A stretch of 64,000 bases of DNA from assembly GCA_028714535.1 (NCBI GenBank), contig JAQTME010000004.1, positions 7,319 to 71,318 on the forward strand. The letters run 5' to 3'. Numbering within the stretch: the stretch's first letter is position 1; each line of letters starts with the position of its first letter. Below the pieces are notes generated by a model. That model made no database searches and was not told the DNA's origin. It worked only from the letters and a program-made list of their open reading frames with translations. The DNA is from Candidatus Iainarchaeum sp. GTDB lineage: Archaea; Micrarchaeota; Micrarchaeia; Anstonellales; Bilamarchaeaceae. The translations under genes and the position numbers were made by a program. Of this stretch, positions 5,192 to 64,000 are shown one piece after another.

Positions 5192-5211
5192 CTTTAGTCA
5201 CCTCATGAAGA

Positions 5212-5373
5212 TCATGCTGTGAATCCTACTGGTGATTGAGCAAAACTCTTATTAATACCCGCCGCTCCGGCTCCGAGAACAAGTGCGCTCGCCGCTGCCG
5301 CTGTGAATGCCGCGGCGGCATTGTGCGCTCCAGTTTTCTTCCCGGCTGGGTTAACCATGCTCAAACATTTCAT
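5212..5373 (-). CDS. Small Ala/Gly-rich hydrophobic peptide, 53 aa, translationally coupled inside the large-protein operon
   Basis: Strong Shine-Dalgarno GGAGGTGGGAG 3 nt before ATG (MKCLSMVNPAGKKTGAHNAAAAFTAAAASALVLGAGAAGINKSFAQSPVGFTA). Stop lies 21 nt before the ATG of the 650-aa gene. Confidence 0.45.
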   Translation of the reverse strand: MKCLSMVNPAGKKTGAHNAAAAFTAAAASALVLGAGAAGINKSFAQSPVGFTA

Positions 5374-5410
5374 TACTCCCACCTCCTTCTGATATCCACC
5401 CATGTTAGCG

Positions 5411-17255: not shown

Positions 17256-17322
17256 ATTTGTTTTGCTAATTTTCGCTTGCGCGAAAATCGCAAAACCACT
17301 ATAAATAGGCAAAAGAAAAAAC

Positions 17323-18183: not shown

Positions 18184-18201
18184 CCTGGAACGGTTTTTGA
18201 C

Positions 18202-23904: not shown

Positions 23905-23909
23905 GCGCC

Positions 23910-24293
23910 ATGAAAGCCCAGATCTCATCCGAATTCATGGTCGTATTCTCGGCCCTGGTCCTGATATTCGTGGTCGTGTTCACCCTGTACTCGGGCGGCA
24001 GCCTCAACCTCTTCCAGGCAGAGGGCTCTGTCGCGGCCATGCGCAACGCGAACGCGGTCGCGGCCGCGCTGAACTACGCCTACCTGGCAGGCGACGGCGC
24101 CAGCTACTCGTTCACGCCCGCGAGGGTGGCGAGCGACGAGAACATAACCATATCCGACTACGCCGTCTCGTCGGAGCGGCCGCACGCCTATGCCGCGGCG
24201 CCGCTGCTCGACGGCAGCATAAACGCCAGCTCGATAGGCCGTGGGCCTGTGCTCATAACCAACAACGGAGGGGAACTCGATATCAGCGGCTGA
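23910..24293 (+). CDS. Minor prepilin-like protein (class III signal peptide), 127 aa
   Basis: MKAQISSEFMVVFSALVLIFVVVF: KxQ-xSxEF plus hydrophobic stretch, same architecture as the major pilins. Confidence 0.6.
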   Translation: MKAQISSEFMVVFSALVLIFVVVFTLYSGGSLNLFQAEGSVAAMRNANAVAAALNYAYLAGDGASYSFTPARVASDENITISDYAVSSERPHAYAAAPLLDGSINASSIGRGPVLITNNGGELDISG

Positions 24294-24312
24294 CCCAGGC
24301 AGAAGAGGAGCC

Positions 24313-24867
24313 TTGGCGACTGATGCGGGATGCCGCACAAAGCGGCAGGGCCCCGCATCCCGATTCCACAAGGGCCAGGTCTGGTCGCTGGATTTCACCA
24401 TGGGCCTGCTGGCGCTGCTGTTCGTGCTGGCGCTCTTCATGCTCCTGTGGAACAGCATCGCGATGAGGTGGAACTCCGCGGGGAGCCAGGCCTCGATGGA
24501 GGCGAGCGCGTTCTTCGCCTCGGAATCCCTGCTGGCCACGCCCGGCGAGCCAGAGGGCTGGGAGATGCTCCCGCACATAGACGCCAACGTGAGCGCGCTC
24601 GGCCTCGTCAACGGCCGCAACGAGCTGAACAGGATGAAGCTCGACAAGCTCGTGGCAGAGAATGCGACCGCCTATTCCACGATAAAGGCGCGGCTCGGGC
24701 TGCAGCGCTACGAGCTCGGCATGCGCATCACGGACCTTTCCGACAACGTGATATACTACGAGTTCGGCAAGTTCAGCGGCACGCTGAACAACTCGCTGAA
24801 GTTCGAGCGCTTCGGCATACTGGACGGCGCGCCGGTGCTGGTGCACATGGAGGTGTGGGGCGGATGA
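24313..24867 (+). CDS. Minor prepilin-like protein (class III signal peptide-like KGQVWSLDF + TM); true start may be internal
   Basis: ...RFHKGQVWSLDFTMGLLALLFVLALFMLLW. Stop overlaps the next start (ATGA). Confidence 0.5.
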   Translation: MATDAGCRTKRQGPASRFHKGQVWSLDFTMGLLALLFVLALFMLLWNSIAMRWNSAGSQASMEASAFFASESLLATPGEPEGWEMLPHIDANVSALGLVNGRNELNRMKLDKLVAENATAYSTIKARLGLQRYELGMRITDLSDNVIYYEFGKFSGTLNNSLKFERFGILDGAPVLVHMEVWGG

Positions 24868-25271
24868 GGGGGTTCGCAATCACGCTGGACGCGGTCATAG
24901 CGCTGTCGTTCTTCCTGTTCGCGATGCTGCTGATGTCGGGCCAGACATACCAGCCCATGGCCCCGGGCAGCATCTACCTGAAGCAGCTGACCCTGGACAC
25001 GCTGGCCGTGCTGGAGAAGACCGGCAGGCTCGGCCGGGCGCTTGACGGCAACAACAGCGGGGTGGAGGAGGTGCTCGAGGCGACGCCGAAGCTGGCGTGC
25101 ATCCAGCTCTCCATACTGGACAGCGAAGGGAACCCCGCCGCCGTGCTCGCCAAAAACGACTGCAACGAGACAGGCGGCCTGGACATGCAGGTCGTATCGA
25201 GGCCGGTGCTGCACAACGGCATCATGTACGTCGTGAGGTCAGAGTCCTGGCTCAGGAAGGAGCCGGAGTGA
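24864..25271 (+). CDS. Minor prepilin-like protein, 135 aa
   Basis: MRGFAITLDAVIALSFFLFAMLLM. Start ATG at 24864 overlaps the previous stop. Confidence 0.6.
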   Translation: MRGFAITLDAVIALSFFLFAMLLMSGQTYQPMAPGSIYLKQLTLDTLAVLEKTGRLGRALDGNNSGVEEVLEATPKLACIQLSILDSEGNPAAVLAKNDCNETGGLDMQVVSRPVLHNGIMYVVRSESWLRKEPE

Positions 25272-25428
25272 AAATCATGCACAGGAGGAAAATTTCAGCC
25301 GCTGGTTTGTCTAGGTTCAGCCTAATGAAGTTTTATGATGGCAAGGAGCGCAGCGCGCTCCTTGACTGTCGTGGAATGCATGGCATTCCACTCCAAATTT
25401 TATCAGAAGTAACCAGGAGGAAAATTTC

Positions 25429-26259
25429 ATGCGTGGATTCGTGATAACCCTGCTGTCGGTGAGCCTCATACTGGTGCTCGTGGTGCTCACCATGTCGCTG
25501 CGCAGCGCGCACCTGGGCACCGAAAGGGCGCTGCTGGAGCCGCTGCCGCTGCTATACGCGGCGTTCCTGCTGGACGACGCGGCCTACGAGTTCAACTCCA
25601 TCGTCGGCCCTTCCATGTCGTTCAGCCAGGGGAACGGCAGCATGAACGTCACCGTCGCGGACACGCTGCACGCGGCCAACCATTCCGCCGCGGTCCTGGC
25701 CTACGGCACGTTCCTCGAAAGCGAGGTCGCCGGCAGGACCTCCAGCAACATAACCACGAACCTGAGCAACATAAGCGGCGGGGCCATGAGGGTCTTCATA
25801 AACGAGGATTACGTGTATCTGAACAACCACAGCAGCGGCGAGGTGCTATTCACCCGGGCCGGCGGCACCAACGCCACGTCGTACGAAATCAACTTCACCG
25901 TATACAGCATCAGGCAGAACATCACGCATATGGATTTCAACTCCAGCGGCACGCTCAACGTCACCATACGCTACACGGACCTGAACGGCACCGGCACAGA
26001 GCAGGGCAGCGTGTTCCCGGGCCAGGCCAACCAGTTCGTCGTCGGATACCCCAACGGGACCAGCATGGCCGTGACCGTCGGGCTGGCCGGGGGCGAGCCG
26101 GGCTCGCTCAGGATGGAGGGGGGCGGCGCATACGCTGATTTCGCATGGACGGCCGCCCTGCCGCGGCTCGACCCGTCGAAAAGGCGCGGCTACGCGTACG
26201 ACGCCACCATCGAATACGTGCAGGGGGCCGTGGCGAAGCGCACGCGGTTCGGCAAATAG
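25429..26259 (+). CDS. Prepilin-like protein, 276 aa
   Basis: MRGFVITLLSVSLILVLVVLTMSL. AGGAGG RBS 8 nt upstream. N-x-S/T-rich extracellular part. Confidence 0.6.
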   Translation: MRGFVITLLSVSLILVLVVLTMSLRSAHLGTERALLEPLPLLYAAFLLDDAAYEFNSIVGPSMSFSQGNGSMNVTVADTLHAANHSAAVLAYGTFLESEVAGRTSSNITTNLSNISGGAMRVFINEDYVYLNNHSSGEVLFTRAGGTNATSYEINFTVYSIRQNITHMDFNSSGTLNVTIRYTDLNGTGTEQGSVFPGQANQFVVGYPNGTSMAVTVGLAGGEPGSLRMEGGGAYADFAWTAALPRLDPSKRRGYAYDATIEYVQGAVAKRTRFGK

Positions 26260-26274
26260 GCGGCTGCCGCGCGC

Positions 26275-26784
26275 CTAGGATTCGCCTGCCTTTTTCAGGA
26301 CATTGGCCAGCGTGTTCAGCCGCGCATCCTTTATCCCAACATACAACGGGTGCAGCAGGTAGAGGGTCGCGGCCGCTACGATTCCCCAGCCATAGCTCTC
26401 TGGTATGGCAGGGGCAACGTTCAATCCCATGATGGACGCATCGTACAATGCCATGGTGAGCAATACGCCAGCCCCCGCCAGGACGGACGCGAACGCATGT
26501 GCAATCATGGCCTTGTGCATCTTATTTACTGTGGAAATGGCTTTTTGCAGCAGGCCCTGCTCTTGACCGAACTGCTCCTTCACGTGCTCCATCTTTTTGC
26601 GCATGATGTTTTCCAGGATGCCGCTGCCAAGGGTCCCGAAGGGCTTCTTCCCGCTGCGCCTGAGCGCGATGGCGATATCCATTGCATCCACGAGCGGCTG
26701 CCCCGCCTTCGTGCTCCAATCTTTTCTGCCCGTATCGACTTTGCCTAGAACCTGCCCGACTACGCGCCTCGTCATGAATCCCAT
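26275..26784 (-). CDS. Hypothetical membrane protein (2 C-terminal TM helices), encoded antisense between the two pilus operons
   Basis: Protein-like composition. TATA-like TTTATAAGTATAT about 30-45 nt upstream. Confidence 0.45.
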   Translation of the reverse strand: MGFMTRRVVGQVLGKVDTGRKDWSTKAGQPLVDAMDIAIALRRSGKKPFGTLGSGILENIMRKKMEHVKEQFGQEQGLLQKAISTVNKMHKAMIAHAFASVLAGAGVLLTMALYDASIMGLNVAPAIPESYGWGIVAAATLYLLHPLYVGIKDARLNTLANVLKKAGES

Positions 26785-26933
26785 GTTATCATCCCCTGGC
26801 AGTTCTGTGTGTGATAATGTTTATAAGTATATGCAACTGTGACTGCTGCGCGGGCGCCCCAGCCGCATAATCCCTGCGTTTGCGCACCAGCGGCTACAAT
26901 TAATTTTTAAACAACGCAGGAGATGGGTTTGAC

Positions 26934-28664
26934 ATGGCCATAGAAACGAAGATAGACGACATGGTCCGGTTCATCCAGCAGAAGGGGAAGGCGAACTTCA
27001 GGGACATCGCCAGGAACCTCTCATGGAGCGAGCAGGCAGTGGAGAAGGTCGCGCTCATACTGGAGAAGGCGGGCATGGCGAAGACGCACTATCCCCTGAA
27101 CATGGTGGAGCGCCCGTGGATGTCCATCATCGCGGTGCAGCCGGCCAAGGAGCGCGTGCAGGCGCCAGGGAAGCAGCTTGACGCCTACGGCATCGCGGTC
27201 AAGGGCCACGTGCTCGGCTCGGTCACCATAGTGGATTCCGAAGCCGAGAAGAGGCCGGTATATAATATACTGCTGCCCGAGGCCACCCCCTACACCCGCG
27301 CATACCTGGAGCACCTCAAGGAGGACGTCTCCAGGAAGCTGGCTGTGGCAGAAGAGGAGAAGGGGACCGAGGACGTGGATAAGAACTTCCTCATCAGGCA
27401 CGAGGCCATATCCGGGGCTATCGCCAAGGACCTGGGCCCGGACGACAAGACGCTGGACACGCTCACGGACATAACCCTGCACGAGATGTACGGCCTCGGC
27501 GAGCTGGAGGCTCTCATAGGCGACACGAACCTGGAGGAGATAGTCATAAACTCGGCCGCGGTGCCGGTCGCGGTCTACAGCAGGAAGCGCGGCTGGCTCA
27601 AGACCAACGTCACCATGGCCAGCGAGTCGGACATCGAGAACTACGCCCAGCAGATAGCGCGCAAGGTTGGCAGGCAGATAAGCACGCTCAACCCGGTGCT
27701 GGACGCGCACCTGGGGACCGGCGACCGCGTCAACGCGACGCTCTACCCGATATCGTCGCACGGCAACACCATCACGCTGCGCCTTTTCGCGCGCAACCCC
27801 TGGACCATAGTGAGCTTCATAAAGCCCGAGGTCAACGCGATGACGCCGGACATGGCCGCGCTGCTCTGGCAGGCCATGCAGTACGAGATGAACGTGCTGG
27901 TGGCCGGGGGCACGGCGAGCGGGAAGACGAGCGCGCTCAACGGCCTCGTCGCGCTGGTCCAGCCGTTCCAGAGGATACTCACCATAGAGGACACCCGCGA
28001 GCTCATGCTGCCGACCTACCAGTGGAACTGGATACCGATGATAACGAGGCTGCCCAACCCCGAGGGCCTGGGCGAGGTGACAATGCTCGACCTGCTCGTG
28101 AACGCGCTGAGGATGAGGCCGGACCGCATAGTCATGGGCGAGATACGGCGGAAGCGCGAGGCGGAGGTCCTGTTCGAGGCCATGCACACGGGCCACAGCG
28201 TATACTCCACCATGCACGCGGACACCGGCGCGCAGGTGCTCAAGCGGCTCGTCGAGCCGCCCATAGAGGTCCCGGCCGCCGAGGTCGAGGACCTCCACCT
28301 GGTCCTGGTGCAGTTCAGGGACAGGCGCAAGAACGTGCGGCGCACGCTCGAATTGTCCGAGGTCGTCTCCGGCGCGTCAGGGCCGGAGCTCAACCACCTC
28401 TACAGCTGGAAGGCGAGGAGCGACACGTTCCAGCTCCTCAGGCCGCCGCACCGCTACCTTGAGGAGCTCAACCTCCACACCGGGCTCACCGAGAGCGAGG
28501 CGCTGGAGGACCAGAAGGGCAAGGCAGCCATACTCACATGGATGGAAAAGAACAGGCTGGAGAACATAGAGGACGTGGGCAGGGTCATGAAGATATACTA
28601 CTCGGACCCGGACTCGATAACGCAGGCGGCGGAGAAGGGCACCGCGCCGTCAAAGGTGCTTTGA
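26934..28664 (+). CDS. Type II/IV secretion-system ATPase (TadA/FlaI/PilB-like pilus assembly ATPase) with ~130-aa N-terminal extension
   Basis: Walker A VLVAGGTASGKTSALNGL, Asp/His boxes, Walker B. TATA-like AATTTTTAAA about 25 nt upstream. Confidence 0.85.
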   Translation: MAIETKIDDMVRFIQQKGKANFRDIARNLSWSEQAVEKVALILEKAGMAKTHYPLNMVERPWMSIIAVQPAKERVQAPGKQLDAYGIAVKGHVLGSVTIVDSEAEKRPVYNILLPEATPYTRAYLEHLKEDVSRKLAVAEEEKGTEDVDKNFLIRHEAISGAIAKDLGPDDKTLDTLTDITLHEMYGLGELEALIGDTNLEEIVINSAAVPVAVYSRKRGWLKTNVTMASESDIENYAQQIARKVGRQISTLNPVLDAHLGTGDRVNATLYPISSHGNTITLRLFARNPWTIVSFIKPEVNAMTPDMAALLWQAMQYEMNVLVAGGTASGKTSALNGLVALVQPFQRILTIEDTRELMLPTYQWNWIPMITRLPNPEGLGEVTMLDLLVNALRMRPDRIVMGEIRRKREAEVLFEAMHTGHSVYSTMHADTGAQVLKRLVEPPIEVPAAEVEDLHLVLVQFRDRRKNVRRTLELSEVVSGASGPELNHLYSWKARSDTFQLLRPPHRYLEELNLHTGLTESEALEDQKGKAAILTWMEKNRLENIEDVGRVMKIYYSDPDSITQAAEKGTAPSKVL

Positions 28665-28673
28665 GGTTTCGAA

Positions 28674-29570
28674 ATGGCCGAGGACAAGATACTGCTCATG
28701 CTCGTCTCGCAGCGCCGGATGTTCCAGCTCGGGCGGAGGTTCCGCGGGCTGGGGCGGCTGCTGGGCGCGGCCAACCCGCGCATGGGCTCCATACTCGCCA
28801 AGCTGAAGCTCGACCTGGAGCCCGAGGGCTATGCCATGGGCGCGTTCGCCTCCGGCCTGGCGTACGGCCTGATGTTCTTCCTCCTCGCGGCCGCGGTGCT
28901 GTGGGTGCGCTACCACGACACGGCCAAGATGTGGCCGGAGTCGCTCGCCATCGGCCTGCTGGTCTGGCTCATCACGTTCATGTTCCTCATGATGTACCCG
29001 GGCATCATGATGAGGAAGATCGCGGCCAAGGAGAGCAACGACCTGCTCTTCGCCCTGCGCGAGATGATGGTGGACATAGACGGCGGCGTGCCGCTTTTCG
29101 ACTCCATGAAGAACGTCGCGTCCGGCGACTACGGCTACGTCTCCAGGGACCTGGGGACCGTGGTCAAGCAGATAGAGCGCGGCATCCCGGACCGCATGGC
29201 GCTCAGGGAGCTTGCCGTGCGCACCGAAAGCGAGCTGATGAAGCGCTCGCTCTGGCAGATGGTCAACGCGCTGGAAAGCGGCGCCAGCCTGGGCACTGCG
29301 CTCAGCGCCATAGTCCAGTCCATAGAGAGCTACATGTACCGGGACATAAAGAACTACTCGTCCAACCTCAATTTCCTCATGCTGATATACATGCTGGCGG
29401 CCACGGTGGTGCCGTCGCTGGGCATAACGTTCCTCGTGCTGCTCTCGGCCTTCAGCGGGCTGGGGGTCAGCTTCACCACGCTCCTGCTGCTGCTCGGCAT
29501 CTCGGTGCTGGCGCAGGCGATAATGATAGGGTACATGCATTCGACGAGGCCCGAGACGTTCGGGGGATGA
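28674..29570 (+). CDS. TadC/FlaJ-like (GspF-family) polytopic membrane platform protein 1
   Basis: Several TM helices flanking cytoplasmic helical domain. Immediately follows the ATPase. Confidence 0.7.
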   Translation: MAEDKILLMLVSQRRMFQLGRRFRGLGRLLGAANPRMGSILAKLKLDLEPEGYAMGAFASGLAYGLMFFLLAAAVLWVRYHDTAKMWPESLAIGLLVWLITFMFLMMYPGIMMRKIAAKESNDLLFALREMMVDIDGGVPLFDSMKNVASGDYGYVSRDLGTVVKQIERGIPDRMALRELAVRTESELMKRSLWQMVNALESGASLGTALSAIVQSIESYMYRDIKNYSSNLNFLMLIYMLAATVVPSLGITFLVLLSAFSGLGVSFTTLLLLLGISVLAQAIMIGYMHSTRPETFGG

Positions 29571-29573
29571 CCG

Positions 29574-30884
29574 ATGAAGAAGGGTACAAGGCCGCGGAAG
29601 GGCGTTGCGCCGGAGCCGGCAGCCCGGCCCAGGGCGCGGCCCGCCCCCTATGCCCCGCCGCCGGCCGCCGAGCTGGAGCTGACTGACTGGCCCGCCCCTT
29701 CGCCCAAGTCCATGGCGCCCAAGCCGCCTGTGCCCGCTGCCAATGCCCCTGCGCGCCCGCTCTCCGGCGGCCTGCTCCATTCCCTGTTCTCAAGGCAGAA
29801 GCCGGTCCCCCCTCCGGCCGCCCAGAAGCCCGCAGCCCCGAAGCCCGCACCGCAGAAGAAGGCGCCAGGCGAGCCTGGCATGTGGCGCATCTACCGCAGG
29901 TTCAGCAGCGTGCTGCCGGCCTCGATGACGACCGGCCTGGAGCGGAAGATGCGCTTCGCTGGCATAGACCCGGGCATGAACACCATCCTGCTTGGCCGGA
30001 CGCTGATGGTGTGCTTCCTCTCGGGCATGCTGCCCCTGATGCTCTACCTCGCGGTGCTCAACCCGCTCGCCACGCCTACCACGACGCTCACCGCAATCGC
30101 GCTCTTCCTGGGCGGCTCTGTCGCCTCGCTCATACTGTCATATCTCTGGCTGTACTTCACGGTGGTCGACCGCGCGGCCATGGTGGAGCGGCTCCTGCCC
30201 GACTTCCTCTCGCTCGCGGTCTCCAACCTCAGGGCCGGCATGACGCCCTACGTGGCGTTCGTCCATGCGGCGCGGCCGGAGTTCGGCGCCTTCCACGACT
30301 CGGTCATGCTGTCCATGGCGAGGATGGGCGGCAAGGTGTCCATCGCGGACGCGCTCGTATATGTCTCAGGCGACTTCGACTCCGGCATCCTGCGCAGGAC
30401 CGTGACCCTGTTCGCCAAGGGCGTGCGCTCGGGCGGCCAGCTCGTGAGGCTCCTCAACTCCAGCGCCGAGGAGGTCCGCCGCATCCACGACCTGCGGGCG
30501 GAGCTCATCTCGTCCACGCGCACCTACTCGATATTCCTGGCGTTCATAGTCGTCGCCATCATGCCGTTCCTGCTGTCCGTGTCGCTGAATTTCGTCACGG
30601 TGTTCGTGAGCCTCCAGGTCGATACCAGCGGCATGGACGTGGGGGCGGCCGCGCTGCCCAGCTTCACGGGCAAGATACTCATCACCGCGGACGACATGTA
30701 CAACATCTCGCTGATAACCCTGGTGGTCATAGACCTGCTGGTCTCGATACTCATGGGCATCGTGGACAGGGGCAAGGCCATATACGGCATAAAGAACTTC
30801 CCGGCGCTCCTCGCCCTTTCCCTGCTCTCGTTCTTCATCGCCAAGGCCATAATCGGCTCCTTCCTGGCCGGCTTCATGGTATGA
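29574..30884 (+). CDS. TadB/TadC/FlaJ-like membrane platform protein 2 with ~100-aa Pro/Ala-rich N-terminal low-complexity extension
   Basis: N-terminus PEPAARPRARPAPYAPPPAAE...KPAAPKPAPQKKAP, then TadC-like TM/cytoplasmic-domain architecture. Two platform genes, as in EpdJ/EpdK or TadB/TadC. Confidence 0.65.
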   Translation: MKKGTRPRKGVAPEPAARPRARPAPYAPPPAAELELTDWPAPSPKSMAPKPPVPAANAPARPLSGGLLHSLFSRQKPVPPPAAQKPAAPKPAPQKKAPGEPGMWRIYRRFSSVLPASMTTGLERKMRFAGIDPGMNTILLGRTLMVCFLSGMLPLMLYLAVLNPLATPTTTLTAIALFLGGSVASLILSYLWLYFTVVDRAAMVERLLPDFLSLAVSNLRAGMTPYVAFVHAARPEFGAFHDSVMLSMARMGGKVSIADALVYVSGDFDSGILRRTVTLFAKGVRSGGQLVRLLNSSAEEVRRIHDLRAELISSTRTYSIFLAFIVVAIMPFLLSVSLNFVTVFVSLQVDTSGMDVGAAALPSFTGKILITADDMYNISLITLVVIDLLVSILMGIVDRGKAIYGIKNFPALLALSLLSFFIAKAIIGSFLAGFMV

Positions 30885-30910
30885 TGCCGCCGGCCCGGCG
30901 GCATGGCAAA

Positions 30911-30923
30911 TCTTTTTAAACTA
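30911..30923 (+). promoter_or_regulatory. Pilin promoter box ATCTTTTTAAACT (copy 1); same motif at 31461-31473 for copy 2
   Basis: Conserved 10-13-mer at an equivalent distance upstream of both pilin ATGs. Confidence 0.55.
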
Positions 30924-30950
30924 GCCGGAGATTGCACTACGGTGAAATTA

Positions 30951-31406
30951 ATGATTAAGAAAGGACAAGTTTCGACAGAATATCTGGTCATATTGGCCAT
31001 AGTCCTCGTCGTTGCCCTCGTGGTCGTCTACCTGGTAGGCGGCTTCGCCGGCATGGGCGTAGGAACCATGGAAACCCAGAGCATGCAGGCATGGGGCACC
31101 GCGGCACCGCTCGCAATGACGAGCTGGAAGCAGAGCGGCACCTCGTTGCAGCTCGAGATTCAGAACAACGACGTAGACACGCTGGTCCTCACGGCTGTAT
31201 CCATGGACGGCGCATCGGTCGGCTTAGCGGCCAATACGACGTTCACGAGCGGCGAGAAGAAGGTAATCACTGTGACGACCGCGACAACCTGCGGCGCTGC
31301 AGGCACTGCGTTCACACACGAGAACGTGGTGCTCACCTACAACAAGGGCCAGATAACCGGCAAGACGCAGACCGGCGTGAGGCCCATTGTAGGCAAGTGC
31401 TCCTGA
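30951..31406 (+). CDS. Major pilin (class III signal peptide; Epd/Flp-like), copy 1
   Basis: MIKKGQVSTEYLVILAIVLVVALVVVYL. Conserved promoter box ATCTTTTTAAACT about 30 nt upstream. Followed by T-rich terminator. Confidence 0.75.
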   Translation: MIKKGQVSTEYLVILAIVLVVALVVVYLVGGFAGMGVGTMETQSMQAWGTAAPLAMTSWKQSGTSLQLEIQNNDVDTLVLTAVSMDGASVGLAANTTFTSGEKKVITVTTATTCGAAGTAFTHENVVLTYNKGQITGKTQTGVRPIVGKCS

Positions 31407-31450
31407 ATCCGGTTTTTTTTATTTTATATTCTTTTTTCCCTTTTCCAGCC
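31407..31450 (+). terminator. T-rich archaeal terminator after pilin copy 1
   Basis: TTTTTTTTATTTTATATTCTTTTTTCCCTTTTCC. Confidence 0.55.
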
Positions 31451-31504
31451 CTGGCTGCATATCTTTTTAACCTGCGGCTAGCTTATCTTCATTGAGGGAG
31501 TCAT

Positions 31505-31954
31505 ATGTCAAAAGGACAGGTTTCAACGGAATATCTGGTCATACTGGCCATCGTCCTCGTCGTTGCCCTTGTGGTCGTCTACCTGGTAGGCGGCTTCGCC
31601 GGCATGGGCGCAGGGACCATGGAGACCCAGAGCATGCAGGCCTGGGGCACGGCGGCGCCGTTCGCCATCACCATCCTGAAGCAGAGCGGCACGACGCTGG
31701 AGCTGGAGATGAGGAATAACGACGTCAGCACCCTGGTCCTCACTGACATATCCATGGACGGCGCGTCCGTGTTCTCCTCGAACACCACGTTCACCAGCGG
31801 CGAGAAGAAGGTCGTGACCGCGACCGTGGTCACCGCATGCGGCGCTGCCGGCAGCGACTTCAGCCATCAGAACGTGATAATGACCTACAACAAGGGCCAG
31901 ATAACCGGCAAGACCCAGGTCGGCGCAAGGCCGCTCATGGGCAAGTGCTCCTGA
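31505..31954 (+). CDS. Major pilin (class III signal peptide), copy 2, tandem paralog of copy 1
   Basis: MSKGQVSTEYLVILAIVLVVALVVVYL. First ~110 nt nearly identical to copy 1 at the DNA level. Own promoter ATCTTTTTAACCT and SD GAGGGAG. Followed by hairpin GGGAGAA..TTCTCCC plus T-run. Confidence 0.75.
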   Translation: MSKGQVSTEYLVILAIVLVVALVVVYLVGGFAGMGAGTMETQSMQAWGTAAPFAITILKQSGTTLELEMRNNDVSTLVLTDISMDGASVFSSNTTFTSGEKKVVTATVVTACGAAGSDFSHQNVIMTYNKGQITGKTQVGARPLMGKCS

Positions 31955-32739: not shown

Positions 32740-34644
32740 GTGTTTTGTTTGCACTATAAGGACATAGTCAAGAAAATCAGCGAGATAATGCCGCACGACT
32801 GCGAGGTGACCAAGGTGGAGCCCGAGGGCCTTTCCACGGTCATCTACATCAGGAACATACGCTCCTTCTATTCGAACGAGCGGCTCATCAAGGAGCTGGC
32901 CAGCGCGCTCAAGAAGAAGGTCACCATCCGCGTGGACCCGTCCGCGCTCATGAAGGTGGAGGAGGCCAAGGCTGCCATAGAGGCGCTTGTGCCCAAGGAG
33001 GCGGACGTGCGCGGCATAGTGTTCGTGCCCGAGATGTGCGAGGTGCACATCGAGGCGATAAAGCCGGGCCTCGTCATAGGCAAGGGCGGCTCGACGCTCA
33101 AGGAGATCATGCTCCGCACGGGCTGGGCGCCGATAACCCTGCGCGCGCCGACGATGCCGTCGTCCACGCTGGACGGCGTCAGGAAAATCACGGTCATGGA
33201 GGCCGCGGAGCGCAAGAAGTTCCTGGTCAACATAGGCAAGAAGATATGCCAGCCCGCGCCTTCGGGCGACTGGATACGCGTGATGGCCCTGGGCGGCTTC
33301 AGGGAGGTCGGCAGGTCCTGCCTGCTGGTCCAGACGCCGCACAGCAAGGTGCTCATCGACGTCGGCGTGAACCCTGCCACCGGCGACCCGACCAAGGCGT
33401 ACCCGTACCTCAACCTCACGGGCTTCTCGCTCTCCGATTTAGATGCGGTCGTCATAAGCCACGGGCACATGGACCACATGGGCTTCCTGCCCTACCTGTT
33501 CGCATACGGCTACGACGGCCCGGTCTACTGCACGCCGCCGACGAGGGATTTCATGGTGCTCCTCCAGCAGGACTACCTGAACCTCTGCAAGAGGGCGTTC
33601 AACATCGACCCGCCATACACGAAAAAGGACATCTACAAGGAGCTGCGCAACGTGATAACCGTGGACTACGAGGAAGTGGTCGATATCACGCCCGAGATAA
33701 AGATGACGCTCTACAACGCGGGCCACATACTCGGCAGCGCCAGCGTCCACCTGCACATCGGCGAGGGCGCGCACAACCTCGTGTATTCCGGCGACATCAA
33801 GTTCGGCTTCACGCGCCTTTTCGACCCCTCGACGACGCGGTTCCCGCGGCTGGAGACCCTGTTCATAGAGAGCACCTACGGCGGCAGGAACGACATCTCC
33901 ATCAACCGCTTCGACAGCGAGAAGCGGCTCACAGACATCATAAGGGAGACCATGGCCAAGCGCGGCAAGGTGCTCATACCCGTGTTCGCCGTGGGCAGGT
34001 CGCAGGAAATCATGCTCGTGCTCGAGGAGATGGCCAGGCGCGACCCGGACTTCAACGTCCCGCTCTACATAGACGGCATGGTGCTGGAGGCGTCCGCGAT
34101 ACACACCGCGTACCCGGAATACCTGCGCGAGCAGCTCCAGAGGCGCATACTGTCCGACCGCAGCCCGTTCGAATCGCCGCTGATAAAGGTGGCGAAGGGC
34201 GCGAGCAAGGAGGAGATAATCAACGGCGAGCCCGCGATAATCCTCGCCCCGTCCGGCATGCTGTCCGGGGGCCCGTCCTACGAATACCTCAAGCTCATGG
34301 CCGACGACCCCAAGAACACGCTGGCGTTCGTCGGCTACCAGAGCGCGCTGTCGCTCGGCTCGAAGATACAGCAGGGCATGAAGGAGGTCCCTGTCCTGGG
34401 CGACGACGGCAAGATGCGCACGCTGAACGTCAACATGCGCGTCGAGACGGCCGAGGGCTTCTCAGGCCACAGCGACCGCGCGCAGCTGATGGCGTACATA
34501 AAGAACCTGCGGCCCATCCCGGAGCGCATCGTGACGATGCACGGCGACTGGGGCAAGACCGAGGAGCTCGCGCGTTCCGCGGGCATGATGATGCACAAGG
34601 ACTCGCGCTCCCTCGCTGATTTGGAAGCCATCCGGCTCCGCTGA
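32740..34644 (+). CDS. aCPSF1/FttA: KH-domain + metallo-beta-lactamase + beta-CASP ribonuclease (archaeal transcription termination factor)
   Basis: N-terminal KH region, HxHxDH (ISHGHMDHMG), beta-CASP motifs, C-terminal HGD. Conserved psmB neighbourhood. Confidence 0.85.
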   Translation: MFCLHYKDIVKKISEIMPHDCEVTKVEPEGLSTVIYIRNIRSFYSNERLIKELASALKKKVTIRVDPSALMKVEEAKAAIEALVPKEADVRGIVFVPEMCEVHIEAIKPGLVIGKGGSTLKEIMLRTGWAPITLRAPTMPSSTLDGVRKITVMEAAERKKFLVNIGKKICQPAPSGDWIRVMALGGFREVGRSCLLVQTPHSKVLIDVGVNPATGDPTKAYPYLNLTGFSLSDLDAVVISHGHMDHMGFLPYLFAYGYDGPVYCTPPTRDFMVLLQQDYLNLCKRAFNIDPPYTKKDIYKELRNVITVDYEEVVDITPEIKMTLYNAGHILGSASVHLHIGEGAHNLVYSGDIKFGFTRLFDPSTTRFPRLETLFIESTYGGRNDISINRFDSEKRLTDIIRETMAKRGKVLIPVFAVGRSQEIMLVLEEMARRDPDFNVPLYIDGMVLEASAIHTAYPEYLREQLQRRILSDRSPFESPLIKVAKGASKEEIINGEPAIILAPSGMLSGGPSYEYLKLMADDPKNTLAFVGYQSALSLGSKIQQGMKEVPVLGDDGKMRTLNVNMRVETAEGFSGHSDRAQLMAYIKNLRPIPERIVTMHGDWGKTEELARSAGMMMHKDSRSLADLEAIRLR

Positions 34645-43875: not shown

Positions 43876-46434
43876 ATGAACGGCAAGAGCCCCCCCGTCC
43901 TGAGCAGCCAGGAGCTGGTATGCCTGCCGATGAAGGAACTGCTGTCCAGGCTGGGCGCCTCGGTTGACGGCCTGAGTGCCAAGGACGCCCACAAGCACCT
44001 CCACCTGTACGGACATAACGAGCTGGCCAAAAAGGAGAGGAAATCGCCCATACTGGCGTTTTTGGCGTATTTCAACAACCCGCTCATCCTCATCCTGCTC
44101 GCCGCAGGCGCAGTGGCAGGGTTCCTCGGCGAGATTGTCGAGGCAATCACCATATTCATCATGGTCCTGCTCAGCGTGGTCCTGAGCTTCGTGCAGGAGC
44201 ACCGCGCGGAACGGGCCGCAGAGGACCTCAGGAAGCGCGTGGCGACCACCGCCACCGTCCTCAGGGACGGCGTGAAGCACGAGATCCACCTCAACACCAT
44301 CGTCCCAGGCGACGTCGTCTTCCTCTCCGCAGGCGACATCGTGCCTGCGGACGCGCGCATAATCGAGGCAAAGGACCTGTTCGTGGACCAGGCGGCGCTC
44401 ACGGGCGAATCCTTTCCCGCGGAGAAGCAGCCTGAGCCGCTGAAGAGCGACTGCGTGGCAGAGGTCACGGAATGGAGGAACTACCTGTTCATGGGCACGT
44501 CCGTCGTGAGCGGGACCGCGACCGCGCTCATAGTGCGCACTGGCGGCCGGACCCAATACGGCGAGACAGTGAAGCTGGCCATGGAGAAGCGGCCTGAGAC
44601 CGAGTTCGACCGCGGGCTGAGGCAGTTCGGCTACCTCATCATGCAGGTGACCATCATCCTGGTGGTGTTCGTCTTCATAGTCCTCGCGCTGCTCAAGCAC
44701 GACGTGCTGGAATCGGTGCTGTTCGCGCTGGCGCTTGCAGTCGGGCTGACGCCAGAACTGCTGCCCATGATAGTGTCCATAAACCTGTCCATGGGCGCGG
44801 TCGCCATGTCAGGGAAGAAGGTCATCGTGAAGCGGCTCTCCTCAATCCACAACTTCGGCGCCATGGACGTGCTCTGCTCTGACAAGACAGGCACGCTCAC
44901 CGAGAACCGCGTGACGCTCATCATGCACGTGGACCTGAAAGGCAAGGACAATGCCAGGGTGCTTGAATACTCCTTCGTCAACAGCGCCTTCCAGACCGCG
45001 GTGAAAAGCCCGCTGGACCTGGCGGTCATGGCCCATGACAAGAAGGTTGATGCGTCGGGCTACAGGAAGATAGACGAAATCCCTTTCGACTTCAACCGCA
45101 GGCGCAGTTCCGTCGTCGCCTGGAAGGGGAAGCAGAAGCTGCTCATAACCAAGGGCGCGCCAGAGGACATAGCGAAGGTGTGCGACCGTTACGAGCTGGA
45201 GGGGAAGGTTTCCACCCTGACCGGCAAGGTGAGGGCTGCCATGGACGGCAAATACAGGCAGATGAGCATGGACGGCTACCGCGTGCTGGGCATCTGCTGC
45301 AAGGAAGTGGACGGCGGCAGGCTCACCGCCAGGGACGAGCAGAGCATGACCTTCCTGGGCTTCATAGCGTTCATAGACCCGCCCAAAGCGAGCGCGCGCG
45401 AGGCCGTCGACGAGCTGGAGCGGGACGGCATAATGTTCAAGATACTGACCGGCGACAGCGACCTGGTCACCAGGAAGACGTGCGAGCAGCTCGGCATAAG
45501 GATAACCGGCCTCGTGACCGGCGCCGATGTCTCCGCCCTGAACGACGACGCGCTCGCCCGCGTGGTGGAGAAGGCCAACATATTCGCGCGCGTGACGCCC
45601 GCGCAGAAGAACCGCATACTCCACGCGCTGAAAGGCAACAACCACGTGGTCGGGTTTTTGGGCGACGGAATAAACGACGCGCCGTCCATGCGCGTCGCGG
45701 ACGTGAGCATGTCGGTTGAGAACGCAGTGGACGTTGCTAAGGAATCCGCCGACATCATATTATTGCAGAAGGACCTGCGCGTGCTCGAGCAGGGCGTGCT
45801 CGAGGGCAGGAAGACGTTTGGCAACACGATGAAATACATCATGATGGGCGTCAGCTCCAACTTCGGCAACATGCTCTCCGTGGCCGTCGGCTCGCTGTTC
45901 CTGCCGTTCCTGCCCATGCTTCCCATACAGATTTTGCTGAACAACCTGCTCTACGACTTCTCCGAGACCACGATTCCCACCGACAACGTGGACAAGGAGT
46001 ACATCCAGAAGCCCCGCCGCATGAAGGTGGAATACATACGCAGGTTCATGCTGTTCTTCGGCCCGATAAGCTCCATCTTCGACATCCTGACCTACCTGGT
46101 CATGCTTTTCGTGTTCAATGCCACGGCGCCCGTGTTCCAGACCGCCTGGTTCGTCGAGTCGCTCTGCACGCAGACGCTTATCATATTCGCCATAAGGACG
46201 AGGAGGATACCGTTCCTGTCCAGCCTGCCCAGCGTGCCCCTGGCGCTGAGCAGCATCGGCGTGGTCGCGCTTACGCTGATACTGCCGTTCACGCCGCTCG
46301 CTGCGGTCTTCGAGTTCGCAGTCCTGCCGGTGCAGTTCTTCGCCATCCTCGCAGGGTTCGTGGTCGCCTACCTCATCCTGGTGGAAATGATGAAATGGTG
46401 GTTCTACAGGAAATACGCAGAGCTCGCGGAATGA
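43876..46434 (+). CDS. mgtA: Mg2+-importing P-type ATPase (MgtA family)
   Basis: DKTGTLT, TGDS, GDGINDAPSM, N-terminal HLHLYGHNEL. About 10 TM helices. Confidence 0.8.
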   Translation: MNGKSPPVLSSQELVCLPMKELLSRLGASVDGLSAKDAHKHLHLYGHNELAKKERKSPILAFLAYFNNPLILILLAAGAVAGFLGEIVEAITIFIMVLLSVVLSFVQEHRAERAAEDLRKRVATTATVLRDGVKHEIHLNTIVPGDVVFLSAGDIVPADARIIEAKDLFVDQAALTGESFPAEKQPEPLKSDCVAEVTEWRNYLFMGTSVVSGTATALIVRTGGRTQYGETVKLAMEKRPETEFDRGLRQFGYLIMQVTIILVVFVFIVLALLKHDVLESVLFALALAVGLTPELLPMIVSINLSMGAVAMSGKKVIVKRLSSIHNFGAMDVLCSDKTGTLTENRVTLIMHVDLKGKDNARVLEYSFVNSAFQTAVKSPLDLAVMAHDKKVDASGYRKIDEIPFDFNRRRSSVVAWKGKQKLLITKGAPEDIAKVCDRYELEGKVSTLTGKVRAAMDGKYRQMSMDGYRVLGICCKEVDGGRLTARDEQSMTFLGFIAFIDPPKASAREAVDELERDGIMFKILTGDSDLVTRKTCEQLGIRITGLVTGADVSALNDDALARVVEKANIFARVTPAQKNRILHALKGNNHVVGFLGDGINDAPSMRVADVSMSVENAVDVAKESADIILLQKDLRVLEQGVLEGRKTFGNTMKYIMMGVSSNFGNMLSVAVGSLFLPFLPMLPIQILLNNLLYDFSETTIPTDNVDKEYIQKPRRMKVEYIRRFMLFFGPISSIFDILTYLVMLFVFNATAPVFQTAWFVESLCTQTLIIFAIRTRRIPFLSSLPSVPLALSSIGVVALTLILPFTPLAAVFEFAVLPVQFFAILAGFVVAYLILVEMMKWWFYRKYAELAE

Positions 46435-60429: not shown

Positions 60430-60822
60430 ATGGACTGGAAAGGCATACGGTTCTACAAGGTAGAGGCGGAAAGCAGCAGGGACGAGAACTTCACTTCGGT
60501 GGCCGTCAACCTGGACGTCACTGGCATGAAGCCGAGCGGCGGCGACCTGCGCATCGATTTCTCATACTCCGTGAACTACCAGCCCGGCGTGGCCAGGCTG
60601 AGATTCGACGGCTATACTATAATCGGCGCCAGCAAGGCAGAACTCGACAGGATAGAGAAGGACTGGAAGAAGGACAAGACGCTGCCCAAGTCGCTGGCCG
60701 AGCCGCTCATCAACGTCATCTCGTTCAATGCTGAGACTAACGGCGTGCTGATAGCGAAGGCGATAAACATCGTCCCCCCGTTGCTCGCGCCGAAGATAGA
60801 GATAGGGGCCCCCAAGAAATAG
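60430..60822 (+). CDS. Hypothetical protein, 130 aa
   Basis: ORF with protein-like composition. No family recognised. Confidence 0.4.
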   Translation: MDWKGIRFYKVEAESSRDENFTSVAVNLDVTGMKPSGGDLRIDFSYSVNYQPGVARLRFDGYTIIGASKAELDRIEKDWKKDKTLPKSLAEPLINVISFNAETNGVLIAKAINIVPPLLAPKIEIGAPKK

Positions 60823-60863: not shown

Positions 60864-63800
60864 TCAGAATTCCGCGCCTATCTTGAAGTTGGCGCGCCAG
60901 TTCACCCTGACGTCCTTGCCCTCTGCGGTTTCAGTCGTCAGGGTGCCTATCGAAAAGTCAGCTGATGCGGCCGGGTTCATGAGCATGGACCTGTTCGAGA
61001 GCATCCACGCCTTCATGGTGTATTCCACGCCTGCGGTGAGCGAATAGTCCGCCCTGAACATGCCCTCCTTCGCGGACTCCCAGTACTGGGTGCCGAGCTG
61101 CCCGGTCAGGCTGCTGTTTGACGTGAGCCAGTTGAGGCCCGCGTTCGCATCCCACTGGAGCGCCTCGCCGTAGGCCGCGCGGAGCAGCTCCTGGTTCTGG
61201 TGTATGAACGAGCCCGAAGCGAACACGTTGGCCAGCCTGAAGCCCGCCTTGTCCGAGTATGGCATGGTGAATATGACGCCGGCTATGCCCTCCTGCTGGT
61301 CCAGCCGCTTGGCCTCGTCCTTCAGGTAATCGGTGCTGAAGCTCGTCGCAGCGCCGAGCGTCCACCTGCTGCCGAGCGGCACGCTGACGCCCGCATGCCA
61401 TCCTTCGGCCAGCTCCTTTATCCGCCCGCCGCCTATGGACAGCTCCAGGACCGGGCTCCTGAGCCTGAATTCCCCTATGCCCGGGAAGTGCGCCTCGCCG
61501 CTGAACTTCGTCCTCGGCAGCGGCGTGAGCTCTGCTATGCCGCCTATTATCGGTATGGTCCTCTTGTCCCGCGACATGACGTACGCCCTGAGCCCAACAT
61601 CCGCCACGTCGTAGCTCAGCGGGGTCCAGTCGAAGTTCATGAATGCCGCGCCCTTGTCGTTCAGGACGTCCCATCCGGTGCCTGCCTCAAGGCCGAGCTG
61701 GTTCGTTATCGACCTGCGCACGCCTGCCGAAACCAGCGCCTCGCGCACCGACCTCTGCCCTGCCTGCGTGCCGGCCTGGCCTGCCTGCGCGGCATAGGTC
61801 CGCAGCCACTGCGCCGAGTCCGTGCCGAGCGTGACGTTGTTGTTCGCGTCGATCGTGATGCCTGACCCTGCGGGCGCGCCGCTGGTCGTGAGCAGCTCGA
61901 AGAGCCTCTGCCTCGCCTGGACGTTGGCGCCGACCGACCTGAGCGTGCCGCTGAGCCCGAGGTTCTGGTCATAGAACGCCTGGGCCTCCTGGCTCAGCAC
62001 CGTGACCTGGGACTGCGACTGCGTCGTCTCCGTGAATGTCTTGATGAGCGTTGATGCGACCATGCCGTTGAGCATGTCCCTGCTCACGCCGTAGATCTTC
62101 CCGCCCTCCAGGGCCTCCCTGCCTGTTTCGGCCTCCCTCAGGAGCCTGCCGAGGCCGAAGCCGCCGTAGCGCACGCCCATGTAGTCGCGGCCGAACATGT
62201 GGTTCACTATCGCCGCGCCCTGCAGGTCGTCAGCCGTCATGTTCTTCGCAAGGCCGATGAAGCTGCGCACTTCGGTGTCGTTGTTCTTCAGGTATGAGAA
62301 TTCGCCGTAGAACCTGCTCTTGCCGTCCGCCTCCACGCGGACATTCTCGGCAGTGAGCCTCCCCACCCAGAACGACCGCTTGTCAGGCATGAAGCGCCCG
62401 AACGCGCCCGCGGCCCTTCCGCCGCGCGTCTGCTCGTAATCGGCGTAGCCGCCCCACTTTCCGACCTGCGCCGCGGCGCCGGCCCCCTGGAACTGGTCCC
62501 AGGCGGTGTAGTCGCTGGTCCACGGCCCCGAGAAAAGCACCGCGCCGTCCATCTGCGCGAGCGCATCGCCTGTGCGCACCCCTGCGCCGCCATAGAGCCT
62601 CTGCATCGGCCTTTCGAACGCCTCTGCGTACAGGATGGCGGCCTGTTCCTCTGAAAGCGTCGCCGCGTCTGAAAGTATGAAGCTGCCGTTGGCCATGCGC
62701 TGGTAGGCGTGCGCGGTGAGGCTGACCTCGCCCTTGGCGTTCTCGTTGCGCCTGAAAAGCATGAACGTCTCGGCGCCCTTGGGCGCGATGGCAGAGAATA
62801 CGCTGCCTATGGTCTCCAGCCGCGTGCCGGCCTGCTCGAAGTCGAAGCTGCCTGTGTTGACGTTGTAGTTCTGCGACGTGCGCAGGTTCTGCAGTTCCAT
62901 GCTGCCCACCTGCCTGGTCTGGACGCCCATGCCCTCGCTTATGCTGTAGCTCGCCCTGGCGTTGGTTGTCGCCCCTTCCCTGGCCAGGTTTGAGGCGACG
63001 TTTATCGTCGTGGTCGTGTTGTCGCTGGTCCTTGCCCCGGTCGTCTTGTTGAGCGCGTATTCGTGGTCAGTCGTCGTGTTGCCGTAGACGTTGGCGGCTA
63101 TCCACCTGCCCACCGGCGGCAGGTCTGGCGCCAGGTCCCCTATGTTCCTGAGCAGGATGGGCATGTTGAGGTACGGCAGCGGCAGGTTCACGCTGCCCTC
63201 CACCATGGGCTTGCCCATGAAGATGCCCATCACGCGCAGGAAAGCCGGCGCGCCCGTGGCGGCCTCGACGAGCGCAGGCCCCCTTGCGACCTGCAGTATG
63301 CCAGTGCTGGCCCATTCCTCATAGACCCTTTTCGGCACGCGCACGCGTATGTTCGCGGACAGCAGGAATATTTCGGCGAATTTCGGGTCCTCGGCCGGAG
63401 TCCTCACCCTGACGTCGTAGCCCTGCTCCCTCCCGGCCGCCTGGATGGCGGTTATGTCGGTGAACAGCTTCGCGAGCCTGTCCGGCAGGGTGCTGTAATA
63501 CTCGATGAGCAGATTCTGGTAGTCCCCGTTCACGAACATCTGGCTGGAGCCCGCGATGAAGCTCGCGATTGCCGCTATCGACGCGTCGTCGTAGTTCCCC
63601 AGCAGCTTGTCGCCGATTGTCGCGAGCAGCATGGACGCGTAGGGCGCGGGAAGCGCGGACAGCTCGTTGATGAGCGCGCACACCTTGGCCATCTCCGCCT
63701 CGTTGCCCACCAGCATCCCGGACCAGTTCCTGCCATAGTGCTGCCTGAGCAGGCCGTATATGCCGTAGGCGTACTCGAGCTGGATGTTCCCGAACGCCTG

Positions 63801-64000
63801 CCTCGCCTTTGTCGCGAGTTCCTGCCTGGACTCCTTCAGGAGCCTCTCGCCCGAGAGCGTCGGCGCGGTTGCCGACAGCGCCGAGATGTGCCTGTCTATG
63901 TCGGATGTGAACCCGTTCCTGAACGCGATGAATTCCCTGTCCTTGCCCATGGCCTCGTATCTCGCCCTGAGCGCATCTACGTGGTCCACGCCGGTCGCGG
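60864..64000 (-). CDS. Giant envelope protein (more than 1041 aa; N-terminus outside window) with C-terminal beta-barrel-like region ending in ...VRVNWRANFKIGAEF
   Basis: Continuous ORF to the window edge. C-terminal ~250 aa with alternating hydrophobic/aromatic strands. Terminal Phe with hydrophobic residues at -3, -5, -7, -9. Confidence 0.6.
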   Translation of the reverse strand, partial: ATGVDHVDALRARYEAMGKDREFIAFRNGFTSDIDRHISALSATAPTLSGERLLKESRQELATKARQAFGNIQLEYAYGIYGLLRQHYGRNWSGMLVGNEAEMAKVCALINELSALPAPYASMLLATIGDKLLGNYDDASIAAIASFIAGSSQMFVNGDYQNLLIEYYSTLPDRLAKLFTDITAIQAAGREQGYDVRVRTPAEDPKFAEIFLLSANIRVRVPKRVYEEWASTGILQVARGPALVEAATGAPAFLRVMGIFMGKPMVEGSVNLPLPYLNMPILLRNIGDLAPDLPPVGRWIAANVYGNTTTDHEYALNKTTGARTSDNTTTTINVASNLAREGATTNARASYSISEGMGVQTRQVGSMELQNLRTSQNYNVNTGSFDFEQAGTRLETIGSVFSAIAPKGAETFMLFRRNENAKGEVSLTAHAYQRMANGSFILSDAATLSEEQAAILYAEAFERPMQRLYGGAGVRTGDALAQMDGAVLFSGPWTSDYTAWDQFQGAGAAAQVGKWGGYADYEQTRGGRAAGAFGRFMPDKRSFWVGRLTAENVRVEADGKSRFYGEFSYLKNNDTEVRSFIGLAKNMTADDLQGAAIVNHMFGRDYMGVRYGGFGLGRLLREAETGREALEGGKIYGVSRDMLNGMVASTLIKTFTETTQSQSQVTVLSQEAQAFYDQNLGLSGTLRSVGANVQARQRLFELLTTSGAPAGSGITIDANNNVTLGTDSAQWLRTYAAQAGQAGTQAGQRSVREALVSAGVRRSITNQLGLEAGTGWDVLNDKGAAFMNFDWTPLSYDVADVGLRAYVMSRDKRTIPIIGGIAELTPLPRTKFSGEAHFPGIGEFRLRSPVLELSIGGGRIKELAEGWHAGVSVPLGSRWTLGAATSFSTDYLKDEAKRLDQQEGIAGVIFTMPYSDKAGFRLANVFASGSFIHQNQELLRAAYGEALQWDANAGLNWLTSNSSLTGQLGTQYWESAKEGMFRADYSLTAGVEYTMKAWMLSNRSMLMNPAASADFSIGTLTTETAEGKDVRVNWRANFKIGAEF

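Follow-up and report, generated by a model that had tools for sequence, protein, structure and literature searches.

Transmembrane β-barrels are taken as a hallmark of the outer membranes of bacteria and of the organelles that descend from bacteria, and we know of no characterised transmembrane β-barrel from an archaeon. The locus described here raises the question of whether an archaeal genome can encode such a barrel. It lies at the end of a 64,000-nucleotide stretch, referred to below as the window, of contig JAQTME010000004.1 (assembly GCA_028714535.1) from Candidatus Iainarchaeum sp., a genus placed in the DPANN phylum Iainarchaeota. A minus-strand open reading frame (ORF) at this end, the barrel gene, encodes a giant protein whose C-terminal ~280 residues were predicted with good confidence to form a 16-stranded β-barrel resembling outer-membrane proteins (OMPs), with a conserved aromatic end.

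The barrel gene extended from its stop codon (60864–60866) past the end of the window, and 1044 of its codons were visible. The full-length protein was P0001 (NCBI 'hypothetical protein PHV13_02290 [Candidatus ainarchaeum sp.]'), which was encoded on a contig of 83 kb, was composed of 1568 residues and was 100% identical to the window fragment. The initial annotation, which had described a giant protein ending in an alternating pattern back to position −15 with Phe last and Gly at −4, was borne out on both counts. The protein ended in ...VRVNWRANFKIGAEF, where Phe was the final residue, Gly occupied position −4, and hydrophobic residues occupied positions −1, −3, −5, −7, −9, −11, −13, and −15. 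This arrangement, alternating hydrophobic residues closed by F, W, or Y, is that of the C-terminal β-signal of outer-membrane barrel proteins. Among 51 non-overlapping ORFs of the window, three ended in F, W, or Y, and the barrel gene alone combined a terminal aromatic residue with hydrophobic residues at all eight in-phase positions and at none of the seven out-of-phase positions. In an alignment of the C-terminal domain from 20 family members, which shared 20–62% identity with the window sequence, F or W was located exactly at the end in 16, and the remaining four carried a short, mostly Lys-rich extension past an aligned F, I, or L. A member outside this set, from the related locus L011, ended in LLNM. 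The Gly at −4 was not conserved across the family.

The last 300 residues were modelled with AlphaFold2 using the 20-sequence alignment A4. The model had a mean predicted local distance difference test score (pLDDT) of 85.5 and a predicted template modelling score (pTM) of 0.71, and all five models had a pLDDT of at least 70. It consisted of one helix (residues 2–23, low confidence) and, after it, 16 up-and-down strands within the last 277 residues, in agreement with the initial description of the ~250 residues before the tail as rich in amphipathic strands. The strands were predicted to form an antiparallel, probably closed barrel with an even strand number, as is found in outer-membrane barrels. 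In an independent model of the whole 1044-residue fragment, the same strands were obtained, with a run of long antiparallel strands at residues 815–1042 (pLDDT 60–82). In most strands, the family-wide hydrophobic fraction was 0.55–0.76 on one face and 0.08–0.4 on the other, which was polar or charged, and W, Y, or F residues were located close to the strand ends of the hydrophobic face. Strands 10 and 11 showed almost no hydrophobic alternation. The barrel contained 11% Gly and 11% aromatic residues and was free of Cys. The hydrophobic face probably points outward, because a barrel of 16 strands has too wide an interior for that face to be buried there.

When both models were compared with known structures by Foldseek, only outer-membrane barrels were matched, with E-values of ~1e-4 and TM-scores of 0.3–0.46. 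The matches included chitoporin, OmpT, AlgE, PgaA, CymA, Omp32, PorB, OmpM1, SlpA, and the β-domains of EspP and Hbp. MtrB, FhaC, BamA, and a TOC subunit were also among the structural matches of the domain model, with sequence identities of 4–13% throughout.

At the sequence level, the protein belonged to a small family of its own. Of 5.8 billion entries, 11 clusters matched the barrel protein, and no matching protein had a Pfam domain; ten were 1568–1787 residues long, and P0006 (1000 residues) started only in the middle region of the family. An exhaustive search of 1.84 billion representatives with a profile hidden Markov model (HMM) of the last 300 residues found 14 family proteins and no homologue outside the clade of the family. 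The new, more distant matches were mostly giants of 1656–2420 residues with the domain at the extreme C-terminus, and three were shorter (295–392 residues). The family comprised ~20 sequences in total. When one genome per GTDB species was scanned, three loci were found, all in metagenome-assembled genomes (MAGs) named 'Candidatus Micrarchaeota archaeon', and every member with a checkable locus or source came from Micrarchaeota or Iainarchaeota. The sub-branches were ~30% identical to each other and contained module duplications and insertions. Neither the protein nor the barrel domain matched any sequence or profile in Pfam, NCBIfam, or the PDB (phmmer and hmmsearch), and kinship with known families at the sequence level was rejected on these searches. 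Scanning each member against Pfam at E ≤ 10 gave sub-threshold matches only, to MipA (0.035) and Omptin (0.19) in single members each. Archaeal S-layer domains (e.g. TIGR01564/TIGR01567, PF05123-type) were not matched in Pfam or NCBIfam by either the window protein or full-length P0001. A full-text literature search gave no account of this family or of β-barrel membrane proteins in Micrarchaeota or Iainarchaeota.

An OMP-like fold and a β-signal-like tail are bacterial hallmarks, and the gene might accordingly be bacterial, having entered the MAG as contamination or the genome by recent horizontal transfer of an OMP gene. The surroundings of the gene were archaeal. The window encoded aTrm56, an archaeal GlmM, FttA/aCPSF1, PurP (DUF1246/DUF1297), the small subunit of PolD (DP1), a proteasome subunit, class III signal-peptide pilins with T2SSE/T2SSF partners, and KaiC-like ATPases. 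The G+C content at third codon positions (GC3) was 0.878 in the barrel gene, compared with 0.79–0.91 in housekeeping genes. The association of the giant gene with Trm56/GlmM was kept in the window and in eight distinct related loci, and on independent contigs from different samples its homologues neighboured the 130-residue ORF described below, Trm56, GlmM, PRPP synthase, DJ-1, ferredoxin, and GGR. The exhaustive HMM search reached no bacterial OMP family, and the genome scan reached Micrarchaeota MAGs only. Bacterial contamination or recent horizontal transfer was rejected because of the synteny, the marker genes, and the native GC3, and a bacterial origin is effectively refuted; the initial annotation had argued against contamination from the archaeal core genes. 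The barrel gene is native and archaeal.

The architecture of the whole protein was read from an alignment of relatives (A1), which suggests the following order from the N- to the C-terminus: a signal-like segment in most relatives, ~800 residues of helices, ~340 residues rich in β-structure, a module of ~90 residues, and the 16-stranded barrel. The whole-fragment AlphaFold2 model, from 11 aligned sequences, had a mean pLDDT of 51 and was confident in three parts only; its confident part of the module comprised residues 670–741. The motifs conserved most strongly in the family (GGRIYGVS, QFQGAG, and WGGYxDYE) were located in the middle region. The barrel HMM also matched weakly inside this region, at 62808–62975 (fragment residues 342–397) and at equivalent positions in the L001, L003, and L009 proteins, which hints at β-hairpin repeats or at a second or larger barrel. 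In most relatives, the N-terminus contained an R/K-rich stretch (e.g. SRFKNF) and a hydrophobic segment of ~15 residues, and looks like a signal peptide or an N-terminal anchor. It was followed by a conserved motif, G-x-N-I-N-x-F/L...N...M-A, in P0002–P0005, P0009–P0012, P0014, P0016, and P0018–P0020. The gene models of P0001, P0007, and P0008 began at or just before the M position of this motif, which might act in processing or sorting or might mark alternative starts. P0001 as annotated, with its 5' end beyond the window, began at the same point as the L006 and L010 proteins. No segment of the mature protein was hydrophobic enough for a transmembrane helix. Export of the barrel protein is suggested by the signal-like N-termini of the relatives, and for the window copy it is extrapolated from them.

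Table 1. Coordinates of the barrel gene, its predicted parts, its neighbour, and the pilus locus in the window.
Feature	Position	Strand	Basis or context
Barrel gene, 3' two-thirds (1044 codons and stop); 5' end past the window	60864..64000	−	100% identity to P0001
End of the long N-terminal α-helical region (fragment residues 1–190)	63429..63998	−	AlphaFold2 helices 6–188; pLDDT 70–85 at 10–150
Middle β-rich, Gly-/aromatic-rich region (fragment residues ~300–640)	62079..63101	−	AlphaFold2 strands with pLDDT <50; invariant columns in alignments A1 and A2
α/β module of ~90 residues (fragment residues 651–743)	61770..62048	−	Module HMM; BLASTP to L001_1162, L001_1661, and L001_1637; pLDDT 71–87; gap in A1
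Helix directly before the barrel, conserved LVSAGVR	61698..61763	−	AlphaFold2 domain model, helix 2–23, pLDDT 50–66; S13 and R17 invariant in alignment A3
Predicted 16-stranded antiparallel β-barrel, porin-/OMP-like	60867..61697	−	AlphaFold2 domain model
Last strand, β-signal-like tail KDVRVNWRANFKIGAEF, Phe at the end	60867..60917	−	Translation, alignment, and comparison of ORF tails
130-residue soluble protein; tail to tail with the barrel gene (convergent) across a gap of 41 bp	60430..60822	+	Adjacency across loci
KaiC-like ATPase	20895-21674	+	Pilus locus
747-residue VWA-domain protein	21661-23904	+	Pilus locus
T2SSE ATPase	26934-28664	+	Pilus locus
Two T2SSF proteins	28674-29570, 29574-30884	+	Pilus locus
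Two class III signal-peptide pilins, C-termini near-identical	30903-31406, 31505-31954	+	Pilus locus

The closest companion of the barrel gene was a small gene encoding a protein of 130 residues, which was located next to or near it in every locus examined. The homologue was directly beside the giant in the window and in seven distinct related loci, including the most divergent ones (L008, L009, and L011), and within two genes of it in two further loci. The 130-residue family comprised 47 clusters, all annotated as 'hypothetical' and without a Pfam domain. The protein has no hydrophobic segment and is therefore presumably cytoplasmic. Its gene was often beside Trm56 as well; in the window the two were on the same strand with a gap of 34 bp and may be co-transcribed. 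The genomic association is consistent with a dedicated partner of the barrel protein, possibly a chaperone or assembly factor. Kinship with SecB (PF02556), suspected by eye from the sequence pattern, was rejected, and a SecB-like role is no more than speculation: Pfam (E ≤ 10, seven members) and PDB profile searches were empty, and hhalign against E. coli SecB gave a probability of 0.3%. In L003, a second copy of the small protein (126 residues) followed a second giant (1656 residues), which did not match the barrel HMM. The first 143 residues of this second giant (L003:12485-17455) were 98% identical to residues 42–184 of the adjacent barrel protein (L003:6855-11903), and the remainder was unrelated, which suggests that gene conversion or a partial duplication has recently affected the N-terminal region.

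Other giants without Pfam domains accompanied the barrel gene in related loci. The ~90-residue module, with the consensus ...AQxFYDQN...ARQxLYxLLTS...GITVDxNNxVTLG...WLxTY, formed the C-terminus of giants encoded just upstream, namely L001_1162 and L001_1661 (genes at L001:28-3534 and L001:3957-8954) and the upstream giant of L011. It was missing in the P0009–P0011 branch and occurred in duplicate elsewhere within the proteins of L003 and L010, and it behaves, as far as its distribution tells, like a mobile docking domain. In L001, genes for proteins of 1162, 100, 1661, 319, and 1637 residues formed an operon-like cluster on the same strand, with the barrel gene last. The upstream part of the window gene and its operon were extrapolated from these relatives. 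GDSL-family lipases of 738–839 residues were encoded directly upstream of the barrel-giant gene in two loci (L009:5735-7951 and L011:1335-3854) and may be lipid-modifying partners; the window, which ends before the region upstream of its barrel gene, shows no such lipase gene.

The gene context proposed initially, in which the barrel gene was transcribed divergently from an envelope operon and was related to its 650-residue protein, was contradicted. The 3' end of the barrel gene faces the 3' end of the 130-residue ORF, an arrangement that is convergent, and the 650-residue ORF (3239-5191) is 56 kb away on the same strand, without BLASTP or HMM similarity. Of the initial reading, the tail, the barrel fold, and the archaeal genome were retained, and the operon context and the 650-residue relative were not. 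The supposed operon corresponds to three consecutive large ORFs (533-9565, minus strand; 901, 650, and 1384 residues) without Pfam or NCBIfam match. These ORFs (533-3238, 3239-5191, and 5411-9565) had no BLASTP match to the barrel protein or its operon partners and no BLASTP homologue among all ORFs of 12 related loci, and the module HMM did not match them.

Elsewhere in the window, a probable archaeal type IV pilus/adhesion locus occupied 20895-31954 on the plus strand (Table 1). Two proteins with β-CASP/RMMBL domains were encoded on the plus strand, one 5'-truncated at the window start (28-489) and one a full FttA/aCPSF1 with KH domains (32740-34644); they probably represent the aCPSF paralogues that are usual in archaea. 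Two P-type cation ATPases were located at 18202-20853 and 43876-46434 (both plus strand). On the minus strand, long antisense ORFs such as 17299-19293 and 18069-19877 overlap the first of them; these are most likely artefacts caused by a GC content of 60%.

On balance, it is somewhat more likely than not that the C-terminal domain is embedded in lipid as a true porin-like transmembrane barrel, which would anchor a multi-protein surface apparatus, provide its pore, or do both, within an envelope protein specific to a small DPANN clade (Micrarchaeota/Iainarchaeota). Under this explanation, the protein would cross the cytoplasmic membrane in an unfolded state, after which the barrel would fold into a second layer of lipid; this layer could be an outer membrane-like one of the archaeon's own or the host membrane. 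The distance between that layer and the cell would be bridged by the module-bearing giants and by the long helical stretch at the N-terminus of the barrel protein, and the barrel giant would work together with these giants and the 130-residue protein. An even strand number places both barrel ends on the side where the chain arrives, and therefore the ~1270 N-terminal residues would lie between the cytoplasmic membrane and the second layer. Within this explanation, an own outer layer and a host membrane have roughly even odds. The conserved terminal aromatic residue, which is typical of machinery-assisted assembly, and the stable core-genome position favour an own outer membrane, as does the report of ARMAN/Micrarchaeota as possibly diderm, originally described as double-layered (PMC8871954). 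Several observations weigh against a membrane-embedded barrel of this kind. All structural evidence is prediction from 20 aligned sequences, and the closure of the barrel and its outward hydrophobic face are inferred from it. The terminal aromatic residue was missing or extended beyond in five members, and the in-frame N-terminal hydrophobic segment was absent in P0007 (L010), P0008 (L006), and P0001 as annotated. Sequence homology to any OMP family of the Pfam MBB clan was not found. Omp85, POTRA domains, and other outer-membrane biogenesis genes were found neither in the 38 of the 51 window ORFs that were scanned nor in the called genes of 10 related loci, so no insertase was seen in either, and we know of no Omp85 or BAM in archaea. 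Finally, the sole cultivated Micrarchaeon examined has a single membrane and an S-layer (bioRxiv 10.1101/2021.04.28.441871); no homologue carrying its name turned up in the family searches.

The last two observations, a monoderm cell with an S-layer and loci in which no insertase gene was seen, also favour an alternative in which the barrel would be a weapon, displayed on the DPANN cell and inserted into the host membrane on contact as a pore or tether for the uptake of metabolites or lipids. Such a weapon would still be a membrane-embedded barrel and is treated separately because its biology differs. DPANN archaea are obligate ectosymbionts with cell–cell contact structures made of unidentified proteins (PMC11329633, PMC11291902), and the narrow, fast-evolving family, the large GDSL lipases in the distant loci L009 and L011, and the clusters of several giant, secreted-looking proteins around the barrel genes agree with such a role. 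Known β pore-formers, however, assemble from oligomers, and there is no precedent for a monomeric 16-stranded barrel, carried by a tethered giant, inserting into a foreign membrane unaided. The conserved C-terminal aromatic residue would be more usual for an OMP assembled with the help of machinery, and the locus holds a conserved core-chromosome position beside housekeeping genes; insertion into a host as a weapon was judged unlikely. The principal competing explanation removes the domain from lipid altogether, making it a module of an S-layer or sheath lattice, a soluble barrel holding a lipid or ligand, or an alternating pattern forced into a barrel by AlphaFold2. Such a domain would suit archaeal envelopes, which are normally protein lattices, and the prediction leaves some room for it: the multiple sequence alignments contained few sequences (20 for the domain, 11 for the fragment), the whole-fragment model and its middle β region were of low confidence, the TM-scores to real porins did not exceed 0.46, homology to OMPs was absent at the sequence level, and strands 10 and 11 were weakly amphipathic. 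The confidence of the domain model and the pLDDT of at least 70 in all five versions speak against this alternative, as do the width of a 16-stranded barrel, which could not bury its hydrophobic face, and the Gly-/aromatic-rich, Cys-free composition with the conserved terminal aromatic residue. A domain outside lipid was considered improbable.

A lipid-embedded barrel in a native, conserved archaeal locus would bear on whether some DPANN or ARMAN-type archaea are diderm, an old cryo-EM reading that is disputed, on how DPANN symbionts breach or bridge host membranes, and on whether β-barrel membrane proteins can evolve and be assembled in the absence of Omp85. Such a barrel may be the sign of a second membrane that has gone unrecognised, or of a pore that is driven into a host cell. 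The broader proposal is that a clade of DPANN archaea makes transmembrane barrels that evolved, or diverged until no longer recognisable, independently of bacterial OMPs and without Omp85/BAM, for an outer membrane of its own or for a pore bridging the DPANN cell and its host, with the 130-residue protein and the giants as partners; we put it forward tentatively, at somewhat less than an even chance. The 300-residue barrel domain is small enough for expression, refolding, and testing in bilayers, which makes the question directly testable.

Among known systems, the general 16-stranded porins (OmpF/OmpC/PhoE type, Vibrio cholerae OmpT, VhChiP, Neisseria PorB, and Omp32) share with the window barrel the predicted strand number, the up-and-down antiparallel topology, the amphipathic strands, the Gly-/aromatic-rich, Cys-free composition, and the aromatic C-terminal end. 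No sequence homology to them was detectable (4–14% identity, no Pfam match). Porins are stand-alone proteins of ~340 residues, whereas the window barrel is the last fifth of a protein of 1568 residues, in an archaeon without a known outer membrane, lipopolysaccharide, or BAM.

The tether-porins OmpM (Veillonella, Negativicutes) and SlpA (Deinococcus) of diderm Terrabacteria resemble the window protein in overall design, since a long N-terminal helical or coiled-coil stalk precedes a C-terminal porin-type barrel, which in OmpM1 has 16 strands. Both were among the Foldseek matches (8byt/8bys and 8ae1/7zgx), and their proposed role in bridging two envelope layers resembles the one suggested here. 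The window protein, however, contains no SLH or other peptidoglycan-binding domain, its N-terminal region is far larger (~1270 residues), and the β-rich region and the 90-residue module are additional. The resemblance lies in architecture alone and gives no indication of common descent. Classical type V autotransporters (e.g. EspP and Hbp), whose β-domains were also matched (2qom and 3aeh), likewise combine a large N-terminal passenger, a helix, and a C-terminal barrel with an aromatic end. They have 12 strands instead of the 16 predicted here, their passenger is a β-helix and not α-helical, PF03797 was not matched by the window protein, and there was no evidence that its pre-barrel helix, modelled with low confidence, lies in the pore.

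For TonB-dependent transporters (22 strands, plug domain, TonB box), only an arc of the barrel was matched, and the window protein had no plug, TonB box, or Pfam match to them. The features that define Omp85/TpsB proteins such as BamA, TamA, FhaC, Sam50, and Toc75 (POTRA domains, PF01103, and the L6 motif) were absent from the window protein. Ignicoccus Ihomp1/Imp1227 and the outer-envelope proteins of Altiarchaeum are similar in being archaeal and tied to a second envelope layer. Ihomp1 is a small α-helical pore protein and not a β-barrel. A possible distant PopA-like barrel in Altiarchaeales has been mentioned in passing (PMC12228718). The window protein could not be assigned to a known family, because the tests of sequence membership in OMP families and the search for autotransporter and Omp85/TpsB features failed. 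The window domain is predicted to be of the same kind as the transmembrane β-barrels, but it is archaeal, is fused to a giant helical protein, and appears to have partners of its own.

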